Made by a program: the position numbers and the translations under genes | Shown here: in pieces, positions 1,833 to 43,379 of the stretch | How the letters are laid out: every line of letters starts with the position of its first letter | Position numbering within the stretch: the stretch's first letter is position 1 | Notes under the pieces: generated by a model | Databases searched by the model: none | Seen by the model: the letters and a program-made list of their open reading frames with translations, nothing else | Told to the model about the DNA's origin: nothing | NCBI GenBank assembly: GCA_001779055.1 | Contig: MFJA01000011.1 | Span: 23,102 to 66,480, forward strand | Reading direction: 5' to 3' | From: Candidatus Gottesmanbacteria bacterium RBG_16_37_8 | GTDB taxonomy: Bacteria; Patescibacteriota; Microgenomatia; 2-02-FULL-39-11 | DNA length: 43,379 nucleotides

Positions 1833-2993
1833 ATGTCCCTTAGACAGTTAAAAACTATATCTGAAAGAAGAAAATATCTGGAAGAAAAATTAAAACTCAA
1901 GTTGAGTGCAACTGCAATTTTTCCTCAGGGACTAAATGATGCCCAGTATAAAAACTGTGAAAATATGATTGGTTGTACCCAAGTTCCTTTGGGAATTGCC
2001 GGTCCGTTAAAAATTACAGGAAATTACGCAAAAGGCAATTATTATCTTCCGCTGTCTACAACTGAAGGAGCTCTTGTTGCTTCTGTCAATCGGGGCTGTA
2101 AAGCAGTCACTTTAAGCGGTGGAGTTACAGCTTTTTGTCTCGATGTTGGCATTACCAGGGGCGCTGTTTTTAAAACAGGAAATATTAAACAAAGTGTTTC
2201 TTTGCAAAAATTTCTAGAGGAAAATATTTCGCTTTTAAAAAAGAAAGCAAGTTCAACTTCTTCGCATCTTCAATTAATTGGTCTCAAGATAAAAATTGTC
2301 GGGAAATTTGTTTTTGTTCGTTTTAACTTTGACAGTCAGGAAGCTATGGGAATGAATATGGCTACAATAGCCGCAGATAAATTAGTTCGAATAATTTCCG
2401 AAAAAACCCAAAACCGCTGTCTGTCATTAGCTGCTAATTTTGATATTGATAAAAAACCTTCTTATCTTAATTTTCTGGAAGGACGGGGCCGTCAGGTAAT
2501 GGCAGAGGCCATCATAACAGAATCAGTTGTCAGGCAAGTATTAAAAACTTCACCCCAAAAAATTGACGAAGTAGCTAAAGTTAAATGTTACTTAGGCAGT
2601 ATCGTTGCCGGCTCTCTTGGCTTTAATGCCCATTATGCCAATATTATTGCTGCTCTTTTTATTTCAACTGGACAGGATGTAGCCCATGTGGCAGAAGGAA
2701 GTATCGGTATAACCTCGACTGAAATTGTTGACAGCAATTTATATATCAGTGTTAGTTTGCCTGATTTGCCTTTGGGAACTGTTGGCGGTGGAACTTTGTT
2801 GCCTTCTCAACAGGAGAGTTTAAAAATATTAAAAGTTACCAAAGGTGTAAAAGGTGAAAAATCACGCGCTCTTGCTGAAATAATTGCCGCTGCTGTTCTT
2901 GCCGGAGAATTGTCGTTGCTCTCAGCTCTTTCTGTTGGGAGTCTATCCGAGTCTCATCAGAAATTTGCCAGGGCAAAAATAAAGCAGGGGTAA
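1833..2993 (+). CDS. hmgA: HMG-CoA reductase, class I (archaeal/eukaryotic-type catalytic domain, no membrane anchor)
   Basis: Motifs TTEGALVASVNRGCKA, QEAMGMNM (DAMGMNM-like) and LGTVGGGT. 386 aa. Confidence 0.9.
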   Translation: MSLRQLKTISERRKYLEEKLKLKLSATAIFPQGLNDAQYKNCENMIGCTQVPLGIAGPLKITGNYAKGNYYLPLSTTEGALVASVNRGCKAVTLSGGVTAFCLDVGITRGAVFKTGNIKQSVSLQKFLEENISLLKKKASSTSSHLQLIGLKIKIVGKFVFVRFNFDSQEAMGMNMATIAADKLVRIISEKTQNRCLSLAANFDIDKKPSYLNFLEGRGRQVMAEAIITESVVRQVLKTSPQKIDEVAKVKCYLGSIVAGSLGFNAHYANIIAALFISTGQDVAHVAEGSIGITSTEIVDSNLYISVSLPDLPLGTVGGGTLLPSQQESLKILKVTKGVKGEKSRALAEIIAAAVLAGELSLLSALSVGSLSESHQKFARAKIKQG

Positions 2994-3017
2994 GTTACAC
3001 CCTAAATAAATTAAATA

Positions 3018-4052
3018 ATGGAAGTAGGAATTTTAAGTTACGGGATATATATCCCTTTTTACCGTTTAAAAGCTGAGAGTATTGCCCAAATCTGGGGTAA
3101 GCAAGCCTCAGATATCCAAAATTCCTTAGGCGTTAGGGAAAAATCCGTTGCCGGTTTAGATGAAGATTCTGTCACTTTAGCGTATGAAGCAAGTATTAGG
3201 GCTCTGAAAAATTATCATCTGCCCGCCTCCTCAATTGAAGCCATCTTTGTTGGTTCCGAAAGCCATCCTTATGCTGTTAATCCTACCTCAACTATTTTGG
3301 GTGAATTCCTGGGGGTTGGCCATAATTATTTGGCAACAGATTTGCAGTTTGCCTGTAAAGCGGCAACAACTGCTATGATTTCGGTTGCTGGTCTAATTTC
3401 AGCAAAAATTATTAAATCAGGTTTAATTGTGGGAACAGACTGTGCCCAGGCTAAACCCCATGATATTCTGGAGTACACGGCTGCTTCTGCTGCAGCTGCA
3501 GTCATTCTAGGCAAAAACTCCGCTGATAGTCTGGCTAAAATAATTGATGTAGCTTCTGTTTCTTCCGATACTCCTGATTTTTGGCGCCGGGATGGAGTCC
3601 GCTTCCCCAGTCATGGAGGAAGATTTACCGGTGAACCGGCTTATTTCTATCATGTTGAGTTGGTAAGTCAAAATATTTTTAAAAAAACCGGATTAAAACC
3701 CCGGAATTTCAAATACTGTGTCTTTCATATGCCTAATGGTAAATTTCCCAGGATTGTAGCTGGAAGACTTGGTTTTACGCCTGCTCAGCTTGCTCCTTCC
3801 CTAATCATTGATCATATTGGTAATCCCTATTCCGCATCTTCACTTTTAGGATTATCAAAAGTTTTGGATATTGCCAATAAAGATGATCTTATTCTGCTTG
3901 TTTCTTATGGCTCCGGTGCGGGTTCGGATGCCGTGGTTTTAAAAGTTTTGAGAAGAAATGATCATAGTAAAAAAGAAAAATTTATCGATATTGTCAACCG
4001 CAAAAAATATATTAATTACGTGGAATATTTGAAATTCGGTCAAAAAATCTGA
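3018..4052 (+). CDS. HMG-CoA synthase, short archaeal type
   Basis: 344 aa. Motifs GSESHPYAVNPT, active-site-like LQFACKAATTAM, FHMPNGKFP and IGNPYSASS. It sits immediately upstream of a thiolase and a DUF35 protein. Confidence 0.85.
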   Translation: MEVGILSYGIYIPFYRLKAESIAQIWGKQASDIQNSLGVREKSVAGLDEDSVTLAYEASIRALKNYHLPASSIEAIFVGSESHPYAVNPTSTILGEFLGVGHNYLATDLQFACKAATTAMISVAGLISAKIIKSGLIVGTDCAQAKPHDILEYTAASAAAAVILGKNSADSLAKIIDVASVSSDTPDFWRRDGVRFPSHGGRFTGEPAYFYHVELVSQNIFKKTGLKPRNFKYCVFHMPNGKFPRIVAGRLGFTPAQLAPSLIIDHIGNPYSASSLLGLSKVLDIANKDDLILLVSYGSGAGSDAVVLKVLRRNDHSKKEKFIDIVNRKKYINYVEYLKFGQKI

Positions 4053-4053
4053 T

Positions 4054-5193
4054 ATGAATGTCCAAGTTTTAGGAGGTCTGACCTCCAATTTCGGCGAGTT
4101 ATGGGATACTTCTCCCCGTTCTCTTGTCAGGGAGACTTGTTACCAATTATTTAAAAATACATCTTTGCCAAAATCAAAAATTGATGCAGTCTTAGTTGCT
4201 AACATGCTGTCGTCCTCACTTGGCAATCAGGATCATCTTGGTGCGTTTTTTGCTGAAGAATTAGGTCTTAATGTTCCGGCTGTAAAAGTTGAGGCTGCTT
4301 GTGCTTCAGGCGGTATGGCTGTTCATTTGGCTGTTCTTTCAATTTTATCCGGACAATATAAAAATGTTTTAGTAGTGGGAGTTGAAAAAATGACTGATTA
4401 TAAGCCGGAGCTTGTAAATAAAGCTCTCATGGGTGCCGGCAGCGAAGGCGAAAGAGAAGCCGGAGCAACCTTTTCATCACTCTATGCCTTAATGGCAACG
4501 AAGTATATGGCTGAATATAAAACAAAAGAGGAAGAACTCGCTCAAGTAGCCGTAAAAAATCATTATCACGCATCACTTAGCTCTCATGCCCAATTTAAAA
4601 ACCAGATTACCATAGATGCGGTTCTTAAAAGTCCAATGATTGCCACACCTCTGAAAATTCTTGATTGTTCGCCGATTTCTGATGGTGCCGCTGCTCTGAT
4701 ACTTTCAAGTGATAATAAAAATAGTAAAGTTTCGATAGTTGCATCACAGTCGGGGAGCGATTCTTTGTCGTTATCTCAAAGAGAAAACTTAACCTCATTA
4801 AAAGCGGCTGTAATTTCTTCCCGTAATGCTTATAAACAGGCCGGTATTACACCTGAAGATATTGATGTTGCCGAAGTTCATGATTGTTTTACCATTGCTG
4901 AAATAATTGCCATGGAAGACTTAGGATTTTTTAAAAAAGGGGAAGCAGCTAAAAATATTTTTGCCAAAAAAACCTGGTTGGGATTTGGCCGGCCGGTTGT
5001 TAATACATCAGGAGGATTAAAAGCAGCCGGTCATCCGGTTGGAGCAACCGGAGTTAAACAGGTTGTTGAGATTTTCCATCAGTTGAATCAAACAGCAGGT
5101 AAAAAACAGGTCAGAAATGCCCGAATTGGCTTAACTCACAACGTCGGCGGTAGTGGTGGTACTTGTGTCATTCATATTTTAAAGAGGAATTAG
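4054..5193 (+). CDS. acetyl-CoA acetyltransferase (archaeal-type thiolase)
   Basis: Motifs VEAACASGG (nucleophile Cys), NTSGGLKAAGHPVGATG and THNVGGSGG. Its start lies 2 nt after the HMGCS stop. Confidence 0.85.
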   Translation: MNVQVLGGLTSNFGELWDTSPRSLVRETCYQLFKNTSLPKSKIDAVLVANMLSSSLGNQDHLGAFFAEELGLNVPAVKVEAACASGGMAVHLAVLSILSGQYKNVLVVGVEKMTDYKPELVNKALMGAGSEGEREAGATFSSLYALMATKYMAEYKTKEEELAQVAVKNHYHASLSSHAQFKNQITIDAVLKSPMIATPLKILDCSPISDGAAALILSSDNKNSKVSIVASQSGSDSLSLSQRENLTSLKAAVISSRNAYKQAGITPEDIDVAEVHDCFTIAEIIAMEDLGFFKKGEAAKNIFAKKTWLGFGRPVVNTSGGLKAAGHPVGATGVKQVVEIFHQLNQTAGKKQVRNARIGLTHNVGGSGGTCVIHILKRN

Positions 5194-5206
5194 AATTTAA
5201 TATCCT

Positions 5207-5509
5207 ATGTTATCTCCGGTTAAAATCTGGCGTAATCAAAAAAAAGTAAAAAGTCTTTTGAATTTAGAAGGAAAAATTCTCTCCTATACTAAAGTCTATG
5301 TGCCTCCTGCCGGTTTCGAACAGCAGGCTCCCTATGTTGTGGCTATAGCGGAGCTTGTTGGAGGAATCAAGGTAATTGCCCAATTAATTGAATGGCAGGA
5401 TAAAAATCTTAAAATCGGCCAAAAGATCTTGACAGTTTTAAGGAGAACAAAAGATCCTGGACTTGAAGGTATCATCCCCTACGGTATCAAATTTAAGCCT
5501 GTTGATTGA
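5207..5509 (+). CDS. DUF35-like OB-fold protein (thiolase/HMGCS scaffold homolog) lacking the zinc ribbon
   Basis: 100 aa. The OB-fold-like C-terminal pattern is ILSYTKVYVPPAGFEQQAPYVVAIAELVGGIKVIAQLIEW...IGQKI. It contains no Cys residue, so no CxxC zinc ribbon is possible. The position matches the archaeal three-gene arrangement. Confidence 0.6.
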   Translation: MLSPVKIWRNQKKVKSLLNLEGKILSYTKVYVPPAGFEQQAPYVVAIAELVGGIKVIAQLIEWQDKNLKIGQKILTVLRRTKDPGLEGIIPYGIKFKPVD

Positions 5510-5510
5510 T

Positions 5511-6452
5511 ATGCCAGTTTCAGTTTCCGCTCCGGGTAAAATTTATCTCTGTGGTGAACATTTTGTTGTCTATGGGGCTCCGGCCTTATTATCTGCGATT
5601 GATAAAAGGGTTACAGTCAAAATTGAAGACCATAAGGATAAATTATTGACCTACTCCCTCGATAACCGCTTTATTCGTCATATTATTAATGTTGTTAAAA
5701 ATCATTTTGGTCTGCGAAGTATCAGACCTTTTAAAATTACAGTCGCATCTCAAATAAAAAAAGGTTACCATTTAGGCTCTTCTGCAGCGGTTTCAGTAGC
5801 ATCGATTGGGGCTCTTCTTTATTATTTGAAAAGAGTCTGGAATCCTGATTTAGTTAATAAGCTTGCCTTTGAAGTTGAGAAAATTAAACATCATAACGCC
5901 TCAGGAGCTGATAACAGTGGAATAACTTACGGAGGATTAGTTTGGTACAGGAAAGAATTGGAGTTTTTAAAAAGCATTTGGCAATTATCTCTAAAAATTC
6001 CATCTAATCTTAATAAATTTTATCTGATAGATACAGGCACGCCTCTTGAGTCAACCGCTGCTATGGTTAAATTTGTAGCTAAAAAGTATGCCGAAAATAA
6101 AAGATTTTTTGATAGATTTATGGCTATAAACGAAATTCAAACAAAAAAAATTGCTTTAGCCTTAAAAGAAGGCAATGCCAATAACCTGGTTAATGCTCTC
6201 AAAGTATGCGAAAATACTTTGGAAAAAATAGGTGTTGTCAGTCAAAAAGTAATTCCAATAATTCGGGAGGTCGAAAAAAAAGGCGGCGCAGCAAAAATTC
6301 TAGGAGGGGGTGGAAGATCAAAAGGAGTAGGATACCTTCTTTGTTTTATTGCAGGTGAGAATTTATTGCCTGATTTGGTAAAACGCTATAACTTTAGTCT
6401 GGAAGCAATCTCCTTAGGTGAAGAAGGAATTAGATTAGAAAGTTCAAAATGA
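5511..6452 (+). CDS. mvk: mevalonate kinase (GHMP kinase)
   Basis: The ATG at 5511 lies 1 nt after the upstream stop. Motifs SAPGKIYLCGEHFVVYGAPAL, HLGSSAAVSVA, SGADNSGITYGG and KILGGGG. Confidence 0.8.
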   Translation: MPVSVSAPGKIYLCGEHFVVYGAPALLSAIDKRVTVKIEDHKDKLLTYSLDNRFIRHIINVVKNHFGLRSIRPFKITVASQIKKGYHLGSSAAVSVASIGALLYYLKRVWNPDLVNKLAFEVEKIKHHNASGADNSGITYGGLVWYRKELEFLKSIWQLSLKIPSNLNKFYLIDTGTPLESTAAMVKFVAKKYAENKRFFDRFMAINEIQTKKIALALKEGNANNLVNALKVCENTLEKIGVVSQKVIPIIREVEKKGGAAKILGGGGRSKGVGYLLCFIAGENLLPDLVKRYNFSLEAISLGEEGIRLESSK

Positions 6453-7414
6453 CGGATCAAGCGATTGCATCAGCCCCCGGAAAATTAATGCTTCTTGGCG
6501 AGCATGCCGTTGTTTACGGTTCTCCATGTCTGGTTGCCTCAATTAATAAAAGAATAACTGTTTTTATAAAAAGATTAACAGTCAATAAATTGCATCTTTC
6601 CTTGCCTGATTTAAAATTTGATAAAAAATTTAATCTTCGGGATTTATATATTCATTCTTCCCCGCACCAGGCAGTGTTTGTCATCTCCGCAGTTTCTCAC
6701 TTTTTCCATTATTTTCGTAAACAATCAGGACTGTCAATAAAAACCAAATCAGATTTTTTGCCCCAATTGGGTTTAGGATCATCTTCAGCTGTTACAGTTG
6801 CTACCTTAAAAGCTTTATCCCGAATCTTTGCTAAAACTATCAGCCATGAAAATTTATTTAATTTAGCTTTCCAAAGTGTTAAGGCTGTTCAAAAAAAAAT
6901 TTCCGGTTTTGATCTGGCTGCAGCTGTTTATGGAGGTATAATTTATTATCAATTAAACAAATCTGTTCTTAATTTGCCGAAAAAAAACATACCTCTCTTA
7001 ATAGTTTATTCCGGAATTAAAGCCGATACCGAAAAAATGGTAAATATGGTGTATCAATCGAAAAAAATTAATCCGCTAAAAGTAAACCGTCTTTTTGCTG
7101 CTATATCTCAACTTGTTGACAAGGCCAAAATCGCCTATAAAGAAGACAATTGGCCTCTCTTAGGTGATCTGTTTAATCAAAATCAAAAAATTTTAACTGA
7201 GCTTGGTGTTTCAACTGCTAAATTGAATTTGTTGGCAAAAACTGCCGTCTCAAGCGGTGCCTATGGTGCTAAATTATCTGGCGCAGGAGGAGGGGATTGT
7301 CTTATTGTTTTATATAAGGTAGAACGCAGAGCACAAATTATTGATGCTATTAAAAAAAACGGAGGCAGTCTTTTAGATGTATTTCCGGAGACACAAGGCG
7401 TAAAACTCTTATGA
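6449..7414 (+). CDS. second mevalonate-kinase-like GHMP kinase, probable phosphomevalonate kinase
   Basis: Motifs SAPGKLMLLGEHAVVYGSP, GLGSSSAVTVA, SGFDLAAAVYGG and KLSGAGGGDC. ATGA overlaps occur at both ends. The function is inferred from the pathway position. Confidence 0.55.
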   Translation: MTDQAIASAPGKLMLLGEHAVVYGSPCLVASINKRITVFIKRLTVNKLHLSLPDLKFDKKFNLRDLYIHSSPHQAVFVISAVSHFFHYFRKQSGLSIKTKSDFLPQLGLGSSSAVTVATLKALSRIFAKTISHENLFNLAFQSVKAVQKKISGFDLAAAVYGGIIYYQLNKSVLNLPKKNIPLLIVYSGIKADTEKMVNMVYQSKKINPLKVNRLFAAISQLVDKAKIAYKEDNWPLLGDLFNQNQKILTELGVSTAKLNLLAKTAVSSGAYGAKLSGAGGGDCLIVLYKVERRAQIIDAIKKNGGSLLDVFPETQGVKLL

Positions 7415-8388
7415 AAAAAACAGCTCTTGCCTATTCCAACATTGCGCTGATCAAATATTGGGGTAAAGTAGACTTTACAAATCGGCTTCCCGCCAATAAC
7501 AGTATCTCCATGAATTTAAGTAATTTAAAAACGATAACTACAGTTGAATTTCAACCTCAATTAAAAAAAGATGATGTTTTAATTGATGGAGCAAAAGTCG
7601 ATAAAGAGATAATAAGAGTTAAAAAGCATTTGGATAGGATCAGAAAAATTAACAATACCTTACTTTTCGCCAAAGTTGTTTCTCAAAACAATTTTCCCAA
7701 ATCAACCGGTCTGTCATCCTCAGCTTCAGGGTTTGCCGCTCTTACTCTTGCAGCAACCTCCGGTTTGAATTTAAATCTGTCAGAGAATAAATTATCACAT
7801 CTTGCCCGTCTTGCCTCGGGTTCAGCCTGCCGATCCATCCCCGGAGGATTTGTTGAATGGTATCAGTCTACTTCCCGCCATGATTCATTTGCCAAAACCA
7901 TATTTCCTGATAGTTACTGGAATATAGTTGATTTTGTGGCTGTTGTAGGCGGTCAAAAAAAAGATATTTCAACATCTTTCGCCCAGAGATCAGCTTTTTC
8001 CAGCCCTTTTTTGAAAGTCAGATTAAAAAATTTACCGTCAAAGTTAAAATATTTAAAGTTAGCTATCGAAGAAAAAAATTTCCCTGTCTTTGGAGAGATA
8101 ATTGAAGCAGAAGCGCTGGAAATGCATGCCATAATTATGACTCAAGCTCGACCCCTTATTTACTTTCTGCCGGAAACTCTGGCTCTTTTTCGGCAAGTAA
8201 GAATGTGGCGTCTTGAAGGCTTATTGGTATTTTTTACCCTTAATACCGGCCATGACGTGCATCTTTTTTGTCAGGAAAAAGATAAGGATATTTTAAATAA
8301 AAAACTTACTCTGTTGCCGTTTGTTAAAAGAATAATTATTAATTATCCGGCAGGTAAGGCCGCAATTATCAATAAACACTTATTTTAA
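7411..8388 (+). CDS. mvaD: diphosphomevalonate decarboxylase family enzyme
   Basis: Motifs AYSNIALIKYWGK, GLSSSASGFAALT and SGSACRSIPGGFVEW. Substrate preference (MVAPP versus MVAP) cannot be read from the sequence. Confidence 0.8.
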   Translation: MKKTALAYSNIALIKYWGKVDFTNRLPANNSISMNLSNLKTITTVEFQPQLKKDDVLIDGAKVDKEIIRVKKHLDRIRKINNTLLFAKVVSQNNFPKSTGLSSSASGFAALTLAATSGLNLNLSENKLSHLARLASGSACRSIPGGFVEWYQSTSRHDSFAKTIFPDSYWNIVDFVAVVGGQKKDISTSFAQRSAFSSPFLKVRLKNLPSKLKYLKLAIEEKNFPVFGEIIEAEALEMHAIIMTQARPLIYFLPETLALFRQVRMWRLEGLLVFFTLNTGHDVHLFCQEKDKDILNKKLTLLPFVKRIIINYPAGKAAIINKHLF

Positions 8389-8393
8389 AAAAA

Positions 8394-9083
8394 ATGTCCA
8401 ATTTGCCAAAACACATTGCTTTAATAATGGATGGTAACCGCCGCTTTGCCAAAAAACATCATTTGCCGGACTTTGAAGGACACCGCCATGGCGAAGAGAC
8501 GATCGAACCGCTTGTAGATACAGCTATCAAAATAGGTATCCCTTATCTGACTTTTTGGGCTTTTTCAACGGAAAACTGGTACAGGGACAAAATAGAGGTT
8601 AATTATCTTCTCAATCTTTTTCGTACAGTACTCGACCGAAAAATAGATATCTTTCACCGTAAAAACGTCCGTCTTATCTGTCTTGGCAATCTTGAAAGAT
8701 TTCCCCAAGATCTGATTGAAAAAACACGAAATTGGATGGGTAAAACAAAAAACAATACTGCCATTACTCTTAATCTTGCCTTAAGTTATGGCGGCCGTGA
8801 TGAGATTATTAGAAGTGTTAATAAATGGCATTTAAATAAAAAAAATAGATCTCAACCACTGACAAAGGAAATTTTGTCTGAGAATCTTGATACTGCCGGA
8901 CAACCGGATCCCGACTTATTAATAAGAACAGGTGGAGAAAAGAGACTGTCAGGTTTCCTTCTTTGGCAGATTGAATATGCAGAAATATATTTTACTGATG
9001 TTTTGTGGCCGGACTTCACACCGTCTGAATTTCGTAAAGCCATCAGATTTTATCAAAAAAGACATCGGCGTTTCGGCAGATGA
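8394..9083 (+). CDS. uppS: undecaprenyl-diphosphate synthase (cis-prenyltransferase)
   Basis: Motifs HIALIMDGNRRFAKK, LTFWAFSTENW, IRTGGEKRLSGFLLWQ..YAE and RRFG. Confidence 0.93.
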   Translation: MSNLPKHIALIMDGNRRFAKKHHLPDFEGHRHGEETIEPLVDTAIKIGIPYLTFWAFSTENWYRDKIEVNYLLNLFRTVLDRKIDIFHRKNVRLICLGNLERFPQDLIEKTRNWMGKTKNNTAITLNLALSYGGRDEIIRSVNKWHLNKKNRSQPLTKEILSENLDTAGQPDPDLLIRTGGEKRLSGFLLWQIEYAEIYFTDVLWPDFTPSEFRKAIRFYQKRHRRFGR

Positions 9084-42872: not shown

Positions 42873-43290
42873 GGGGATGAGACGATCGACGGGATAGTAC
42901 TTTAAAAACTGCAAGCCGAGGTGATTGTACTCGCAAAATCAATCAAAACAAAACTGTCAGTAATGATGGTGAAAAAGAAGATATTTTAGCTTTAGCTGAC
43001 CGAGTCCTCGGAAAGCTTGAAGCACGAAATGCTTCTTTAGCTTACGCTGCAAATTATTTGCAGGTCTAAGCTCATCTGTATTTGTCTTTTTCTGATGGGA
43101 TGATGCAGGTGTAAACACAGTCAGAATGCACCCCGGTAATTGACAGACATCGGGGTAAAGACTTTGTCTTACTTTTTTTATTGATTGTCCGTTGGGACAA
43201 TAAGAAAAGGACATTATAACAACGGACTACGCTTGTAGAAGTTTTTATAGTGCGTCTTCGGACTCCGGATCACCTCCGGACATCTCCACC
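42873..43290 (+). ncRNA. ssrA: tmRNA (SsrA)
   Basis: The 5' end GGGGATGAGACGATCGACGGGAT pairs with the 3' end CATCTCC-A-CC, including the G3:U wobble. T-arm TCCGG-ATCACCT-CCGGA. PK1 was hand-folded: CGAG/CTCG plus TGATTG/CAATCA at 42917..42945. It lies 5 nt after smpB. The tag ORF is not resolved. Confidence 0.85.
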
Positions 43291-43379
43291 CAGCAAAATC
43301 ACTCAAAACCCGCTTTATGGCGGGTTTTTCGTGATCGCTGGGCAAGCCCTGAATAACATGAAATAGATTTTGCTGGGTG
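43287..43379. repeat. 14-bp perfect inverted repeat bracketing the ssrA terminator
   Basis: CACCCAGCAAAATC (43287..43300, overlapping the tmRNA 3' end) and GATTTTGCTGGGTG (43366..43379, at the window edge). Confidence 0.8.
43306..43329 (+). terminator. rho-independent terminator after ssrA
   Basis: AAACCCGC-TTTATG-GCGGGTTT followed by a T-run. Confidence 0.7.

Follow-up and report, generated by a model that had tools for sequence, protein, structure and literature searches.

The window analysed here, a stretch of 43,379 nucleotides from Candidatus Gottesmanbacteria bacterium RBG_16_37_8 (contig MFJA01000011.1, positions 23,102 to 66,480), carries a mevalonate operon in which an archaeal-type 3-hydroxy-3-methylglutaryl-coenzyme A (HMG-CoA) synthase (HMGS) and an archaeal-type thiolase are followed by a DUF35 protein of only 100 amino acids, from which the zinc ribbon of its relatives has been cleanly excised. 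Eight genes abut or overlap on the plus strand between window positions 1833 and 9083 and form one tightly packed operon, in the order HMG-CoA reductase (HMGR), HMGS, thiolase, DUF35, GHMP kinase 1, GHMP kinase 2, diphosphomevalonate decarboxylase (MDD) and undecaprenyl-diphosphate synthase (UppS) (Table 1). The junctions all measure between -4 and +24 nt, a spacing that suggests translational coupling. The thiolase starts 1 nt past the HMGS stop, and the start of GHMP kinase 2 overlaps the stop of GHMP kinase 1 in an ATGA. The true start of GHMP kinase 1 is the ATG at 5511, 1 nt past the DUF35 stop, where its conserved N-terminus MPVSVSAPGK... begins, and not the TTG at 5463 proposed by the ORF finder, which would overlap the DUF35 gene by 47 nt (window 5463-5510). 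The host is bacterial, as indicated by a tmRNA (42873-43291), an ECF sigma factor and UppS, and the closest relatives of the window carry the name Candidatus Gottesmanbacteria.

Table 1. Genes of the mevalonate operon in the window, in transcriptional order, with the profile matches that identify them.
Product	Length (aa)	Position	Strand	Profile matches and remarks
HMG-CoA reductase, class I (NADPH type)	386	1833..2993	+	PF00368 380 bits; first operon gene
HMG-CoA synthase, archaeal type	344	3018..4052	+	TIGR00748 376.8 bits (cut-off 353.35); NF003274 445.6 bits
Acetoacetyl-CoA thiolase, archaeal type (SCP2-like)	379	4054..5193	+	NF004720 459 bits (cut-off 420)
DUF35 partner without zinc ribbon	100	5207..5509	+	PF01796 (OB_ChsH2_C) 49.2 bits (cut-off 27.1); no Cys
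GHMP kinase 1, candidate phosphomevalonate kinase (mevalonate-kinase-like, divergent)		5511..6452	+	PF00288; TIGR00549 148.7 bits (below cut-off 163)
Mevalonate kinase (GHMP kinase 2)		6449..7414	+	TIGR00549 194 bits (above cut-off 163)
Diphosphomevalonate decarboxylase		7411..8388	+	TIGR01240 248.7 bits (cut-off 171); PF22700, PF18376
Undecaprenyl-diphosphate synthase (UppS)		8394..9083	+	PF01255 268 bits; TIGR00055 255 bits; last gene of the string

The 100-residue protein and the DUF35 subunit in the thiolase/HMGS/DUF35 complex of Methanothermococcus thermolithotrophicus (6ESQ) are true orthologues. The best sequence match of the window protein in the Protein Data Bank (PDB) is chain 6esq_E (2.5e-15, residues 18-99 against 48-128 of the chain). 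A compact AlphaFold2 model, built on 66 short-form sequences, is predicted with confidence (pLDDT 92.6) and consists of an N-terminal helix at residues 4-17, which includes W8-R9, joined directly to a five-stranded OB barrel at residues 21-98. When this model was compared with the PDB by Foldseek, three DUF35 chains of 6ESQ ranked first (6esq_F, E 1.2e-8, rmsd 1.7 A, 82 columns, 44% identity), and the 17 best matches were all DUF35 chains. MucC and PhlB, DUF35 subunits of two related bacterial complexes, align across the helix as well as the OB fold (TMq 0.80-0.85), with a gap at their ribbon. An earlier note, made from the letters of the window alone, had named the four entry proteins and remarked on the missing four-Cys ribbon. 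The open reading frames and profile scores of Table 1 bear out the former, and the protein has indeed no Cys, no CxxC and no match to PF12172 (zf-ChsH2). The note had also suggested a reduction to an OB-only adaptor. The ribbon has been lost, but the OB-only part of that proposal does not hold, since the N-terminal helix with W8-R9 is retained; the protein is a 'helix + OB' and not an OB-only fragment. Databases label it 'OB-fold domain-containing protein'.

Comparison with ribbon-bearing relatives defines what was removed. An exhaustive HMMER search of 1.84 billion representatives at 50% identity gave 563 matches, of which the best 150 were classified: 73 are about 100 aa long without CxxC, and 35 are 130-140 aa long with CxxC...CxxC. 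In a joint alignment of these 108 sequences, the short and long forms are colinear save for one block, the distance from the WR motif to Gly22 at the start of the first OB strand, which spans 11-13 residues in short forms (12 in the window protein) and 42-46 in long forms. The deleted segment, about 31 residues, is the rubredoxin-like Cys4 zinc ribbon. On either side of it the two forms share the near-invariant residues W8, R9, G22, P42, Y43, Q59, G71, R79, Y92 and K95, and the WR motif occupies the same alignment column in 70-73 of the 73 short forms and in 33-34 of the 35 long ones. A short alpha-1 helix precedes the ribbon in both Trf and 6ET9, and the model of the window protein keeps this helix. 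The ribbon of Trf is made of two antiparallel strands around the zinc-binding loop (PMC6996347), so its two ends are adjacent, which may explain how it could be removed without disturbing the remaining fold.

In principle the 100-aa frame might be a gene in decay or one called wrongly, functionless or with its ribbon encoded elsewhere; it falls short of every characterised DUF35 by 30 residues, after all, and its metal site is absent. No ribbon can be encoded upstream, because an in-frame TAA (5198-5200) lies two codons before the DUF35 ATG and the thiolase stop (5191-5193) lies 13 nt off, and these two stops also rule out a ribbon hidden in another frame. Supply of a ribbon in trans is countered by the genome of the organism, which has a single PF01796 locus and, at 85% completeness, returned no zf-ChsH2 match elsewhere in a profile search. 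The class-wide tally of PF12172 (45/301) is uninformative, as this short model cross-hits generic zinc ribbons.

The distribution of the short form also speaks against decay. In a word-indexed search, the matches came to 202 clusters at 90% identity; among the 120 of these that were listed, nearly all are 99-101 aa long, and those named by source are Gottesmanbacteria or Patescibacteria. Scanning one genome per species, we found the short DUF35 in at least 143 species genomes, a lower bound given that the 14-sequence alignment used as query finds only SP[VI]K[IL]WR[NR]Q forms. Length and N-terminus are conserved in these clusters and species, the latter comprising Gottesmanbacteria, Roizmanbacteria, Woesebacteria, Microgenomates and many metagenome-assembled genomes titled 'uncultured Gammaproteobacteria'. 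Within the window's own GTDB family, PF01796 matches once and only once in each of 21 genomes, and the stop-to-stop frames that hold these matches are 100-124 aa long. Pairwise ratios of nonsynonymous to synonymous substitution (dN/dS), taken where dS is unsaturated, are 0.055-0.097. The gene is under strong purifying selection and is not a remnant, and we regard the remnant or mis-call explanation as effectively refuted.

The genomic context is conserved as well. In the 80 loci that we fetched from the 143 species, the short DUF35 gene lies directly 3' of the thiolase without exception (80/80), the order HMGS-thiolase-DUF35 with junctions of 1-13 nt is kept in all, and 48 retain the full eight-gene order of the window. 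The TPA_asm records titled 'uncultured Gammaproteobacteria bacterium' (L004, L008, L013, L023 and about 30 further loci) have an operon of the Microgenomates type and nest among Gottesmanbacteria and Roizmanbacteria in the thiolase tree described below; their titles are evidently placeholders or wrong taxonomy. Two DUF35 genes of the window's class (L087 in genome G245 and L092 in G128) are orphans that lack a thiolase or HMGS neighbour inside 3 kb; one of the pair is ribbon-less (97 aa) and the other ribbon-bearing (153 aa, PF12172 4.5e-7).

Comparisons with profiles and with PDB chains define the entry enzymes that accompany the short DUF35. HMGR scores 417.2 bits with TIGR00533 (NADPH, class I), slightly below the equivalog cut-off of 441.8, and 52.3 bits with TIGR00532 (class II); by profile comparison its assignment to class I over the class-II degradative model is unambiguous. 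HMGS fails the bacterial model TIGR01835 (104 bits, cut-off 360) and passes the archaeal equivalog TIGR00748. Its best PDB match, 6esq_I (4e-99), is full length and colinear, and at 344 residues it has a normal archaeal length (6esq_I has 349). The best PDB match of the thiolase is 6esq_A (2e-87), and it too passes its archaeal-type model, NF004720. Alignment to these chains shows that the Glu/Cys/His/Asn tetrad of HMGS is kept (SESHPY, FACKAAT, FHMPNGKF, GNPYS), as are the CxS, HDxF and GHx motifs of the thiolase (CAS within EAACASGG, HDCF, GHP). We took the motif definitions from PMC12960953, in which these catalytic positions separate true HMGS and acetoacetyl-CoA thiolase from repurposed homologues. 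Both enzymes are accordingly classed, from their sequences, as archaeal/CPR type (CPR, candidate phyla radiation) and not as ordinary bacterial mvaS or thiolase II, the grouping that the earlier note had allowed as a way in which its proposal might fail, and both are predicted to be catalytically intact.

Pseudomonas and Streptococcus have put homologous trios to other uses (PMC12960953), and the trio of the window might likewise serve another direction or pathway than mevalonate synthesis, such as HMG-CoA cleavage or an acyl transfer like that of PhlABC or MucABC. We consider this highly improbable. PhlABC of Pseudomonas protegens (5M3K) and MucABC of Streptococcus macacae (9VBO/9VBT) are tripartite HMGS-like/thiolase-like/DUF35 systems, and the model of the window DUF35 superposes on both PhlB and MucC. 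However, these complexes of secondary metabolism have kept the ribbon and lost the E-C-H-N tetrad of HMGS and, in the thiolase, HDxF, whereas the window trio has done the reverse. Its neighbours likewise argue for mevalonate. The biosynthetic direction is supported because HMGR lies upstream, the lower pathway and UppS lie downstream, a search of the genome, which is 85% complete, found no IspH (PF02401), and another contig carries an IDI-1-like NUDIX gene (G000:C9:1120-1587, L110; TIGR02150 95.6 bits, below the cut-off of 105.8). The mevalonate operon appears to be the only source of isopentenyl diphosphate.

The archaeal-type module is not in itself new to these bacteria. Hoshino and Gaucher (2018, PMC6107057) described, in CPR bacteria and most commonly in Microgenomates, archaeal-type acetoacetyl-CoA thiolase (AACT) and HMGS together with class I HMGR (HMGR-I) and a lower pathway of bacterial type, and they inferred that the CPR ancestor had them. 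The window is typical of the pathway that they describe. In their trees AACT, HMGS and HMGR-I form CPR-wide clades that are congruent with the species tree and sister to archaea, which argues for old vertical inheritance within CPR over recent transfer. Their paper mentions DUF35 zero times, and the ribbon-less fourth subunit is not described there. Among the papers joining DUF35, mevalonate and thiolase, our literature search found none on CPR, and a search for DUF35 together with CPR returned nothing relevant. The archaeal-type module in CPR is thus already published, and the ribbon-less partner is, as far as we could find, undescribed.

The ribbon-bearing state is found on both sides of the archaeal-bacterial divide. 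Ribbon-bearing DUF35 genes occur in the order HMGS-thiolase-DUF35 in three archaeal contigs (Thermofilum, Bathyarchaeota and Diapherotrites), which confirms that the contiguous order of the window is the archaeal one, as the earlier note had stated. They occur in the same order in other Patescibacteria (families f32, f72 and f98), and also beside a CPR-type lower pathway, as in L084, where the order is DUF35, GHMP, GHMP, MDD, NUDIX; P0160 and P0162 are further ribbon-bearing proteins from a CPR-type operon. The ribbon is kept in archaea and in other Patescibacteria in the same gene order, and its loss is therefore derived. For 94 neighbouring thiolases we computed a maximum-likelihood tree with its root placed on the archaeal sequences (three were sampled). 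Ribbon-bearing lineages are basal in this tree, and 77 short-form lineages fall into one group (SH-aLRT 83). The minimum number of changes of ribbon state is 2, and a tree in which the 83 ribbon-less lineages all group together is not rejected, being even slightly better (p-AU 0.68). The deletion is derived and old, and the trees are compatible with a single ancient event.

Other Patescibacteria have altered the ribbon in other ways. Certain full-length DUF35 proteins (132-133 aa; L086 at 3222-3623, L091 in G205, P0194 and P0257) have all four Cys replaced. They sit in an HMGS-thiolase-DUF35 context with the ribbon segment kept, and the thiolases of these loci form a separate basal clade (SH-aLRT 98). 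They represent an intermediate state of ligand loss without deletion, which arose separately from the deletion. In family f16 (L100:2384-3301 on the minus strand, L102, L103, L104 and L106) the gene that sits after HMGS-thiolase joins a ribbon-less OB domain (PF01796 7e-11) to a P-loop domain of guanylate-kinase-like type (PF00625 1.3e-14); the fusion may tie a kinase of the pathway to the entry complex. Finally, L109 (GCA_964354805.1), presumably from DPANN, has a CPR-like order, HMGR-HMGS-(96 aa)-thiolase-DUF35. Its DUF35 (P0275) shares a 90%-identity cluster with a protein named Candidatus Diapherotrites archaeon, and its thiolase branches with Patescibacteria, apart from the two other archaeal sequences. 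With three archaeal sequences sampled, this is only a hint of exchange between CPR and DPANN.

The closest known counterpart of the window trio is the M. thermolithotrophicus complex (6ESQ/6ET9). It supplies the best PDB match of all three proteins and shares with them the HMGS-thiolase-DUF35 order, the catalytic motifs, and the WR helix and OB fold of DUF35. Unlike it, the window DUF35 is without the whole ribbon and cannot bind zinc there, and the window trio belongs to a bacterial host, in which it lies inside a bacterial-type operon (HMGR ... a possible phosphomevalonate kinase, mevalonate kinase, MDD and UppS). The passages of PMC12960953 that treat the archaeal complex describe a coupling of the unfavourable thiolase reaction to HMG-CoA synthesis through a CoA-binding site that is fused, and an archaeal HMGS that is inactive alone. 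In 6ESQ, CoA sits at the interface of all three proteins, according to the part of PMC6392133 that deals with that structure. A more distant comparison is offered by the binary systems ChsH2-DUF35/Ltp2 and BbsA/BbsB, in which a DUF35 protein pairs with an SCP2-type thiolase or aldolase. Their OB domains are homologous to that of the window protein (6ok1_B 0.0078; 7pxp_A 0.19; Foldseek E about 1e-5 to 1e-4 for the ChsH2 and BbsA type), but they carry a zinc ribbon, have CoA esters of steroids or benzylsuccinate as substrates, and lie much further away in sequence.

We favour a reading in which an old in-frame deletion removed the Cys4 ribbon, which juts out like a hairpin where the N-terminal helix gives way to the first OB strand, and left a 'helix + OB' protein that still does the work of the full-length one. 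Co-translated with HMGS and thiolase from the packed operon, the short protein would still bridge the two enzymes, and the endergonic thiolase condensation would be pulled by exergonic HMG-CoA synthesis. The product would feed HMGR, the two GHMP kinases, MDD and UppS, and ultimately undecaprenyl phosphate for the cell wall. For the window trio, a physical complex, channeling and independence from zinc are what we infer from the sequences and their conservation. The buried, contact-making parts of PhlB are its N-terminal segment and two OB loops (PMC6392133). Scaffolding is the most likely role of the window protein because the parts that match these contact regions are retained and conserved in it. 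We therefore think it probable that the short protein still scaffolds both enzymes and that the ribbon is dispensable, and to that extent the interpretation in the earlier note, like its observation, which is confirmed, is supported.

Alternatively, the short protein may serve the thiolase only, in a binary complex, by keeping it soluble or helping it to fold. Along with the ribbon, the bridge to HMGS would then have been lost, and channeling with it, and the enzymes would act separately or in a smaller assembly than the archaeal dodecamer. The position of the short gene directly behind the thiolase throughout the loci would fit such a role, as would the insolubility of the archaeal thiolase alone, noted in the same passages of PMC12960953, and the ribbon, which is present in all solved scaffolding DUF35s, may supply one bridging contact. 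The residues common to short and ribbon-bearing forms, however, span the whole helix and OB fold and not one face; HMGS remains part of the conserved gene order, with its close junctions, in all loci; and both of the regions through which PhlB makes its buried contacts are retained. We consider the thiolase-only role unlikely.

Several observations weigh against continued scaffolding of both enzymes. All structurally characterised DUF35 proteins bind zinc at an equivalent position (PMC6996347), and the ribbon may contribute to assembly. The orphan genes of L087 and L092 indicate that the family can have other roles. We also saw no compensating insertion in the thiolases or HMGSs of ribbon-less lineages in our alignments, in which HMGS is colinear with 6esq_I; the sole variable thiolase loop, after LILS, varies in ribbon-bearing and ribbon-less groups alike. 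We list this last result here although it is neutral, fitting a dispensable ribbon and a different, smaller assembly equally well.

It is tempting to go one step further. The ribbon may be dispensable for scaffolding to the point that a 'helix + OB' of 100 residues is the minimal unit that assembles a working thiolase/HMGS channeling complex, and DUF35 may be an adaptor open to evolutionary change, by which some lineages tether later pathway steps to the entry complex as well, as part of a mevalonate metabolon. The adaptor idea draws on the states seen in Patescibacteria, where the ribbon has been kept, kept without its Cys, or deleted with a guanylate-kinase-like domain added. We offer this wider proposal tentatively, at somewhat less than even confidence.

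The thiolase/HMGS/DUF35 complex is a textbook case of channeling that pulls an unfavourable Claisen condensation, and it also serves as a template in the engineering of mevalonate and reverse-beta-oxidation pathways. Seen against this background, a ribbon-less partner would offer a smaller, cysteine-free and zinc-free scaffold for in vitro work. Our finding leaves the published picture of archaeal-type entry enzymes in CPR bacteria unchanged, and adds to it, in the ribbon indel, a clean molecular character for tracing the history of the pathway in Patescibacteria. The role of the ribbon has in effect been probed by nature, through its deletion: for a very long time, a large bacterial lineage has run this pathway on a partner that has no metal domain. 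The conservation of the ribbon-less DUF35 suggests that the ribbon is not needed for the job that this partner performs.

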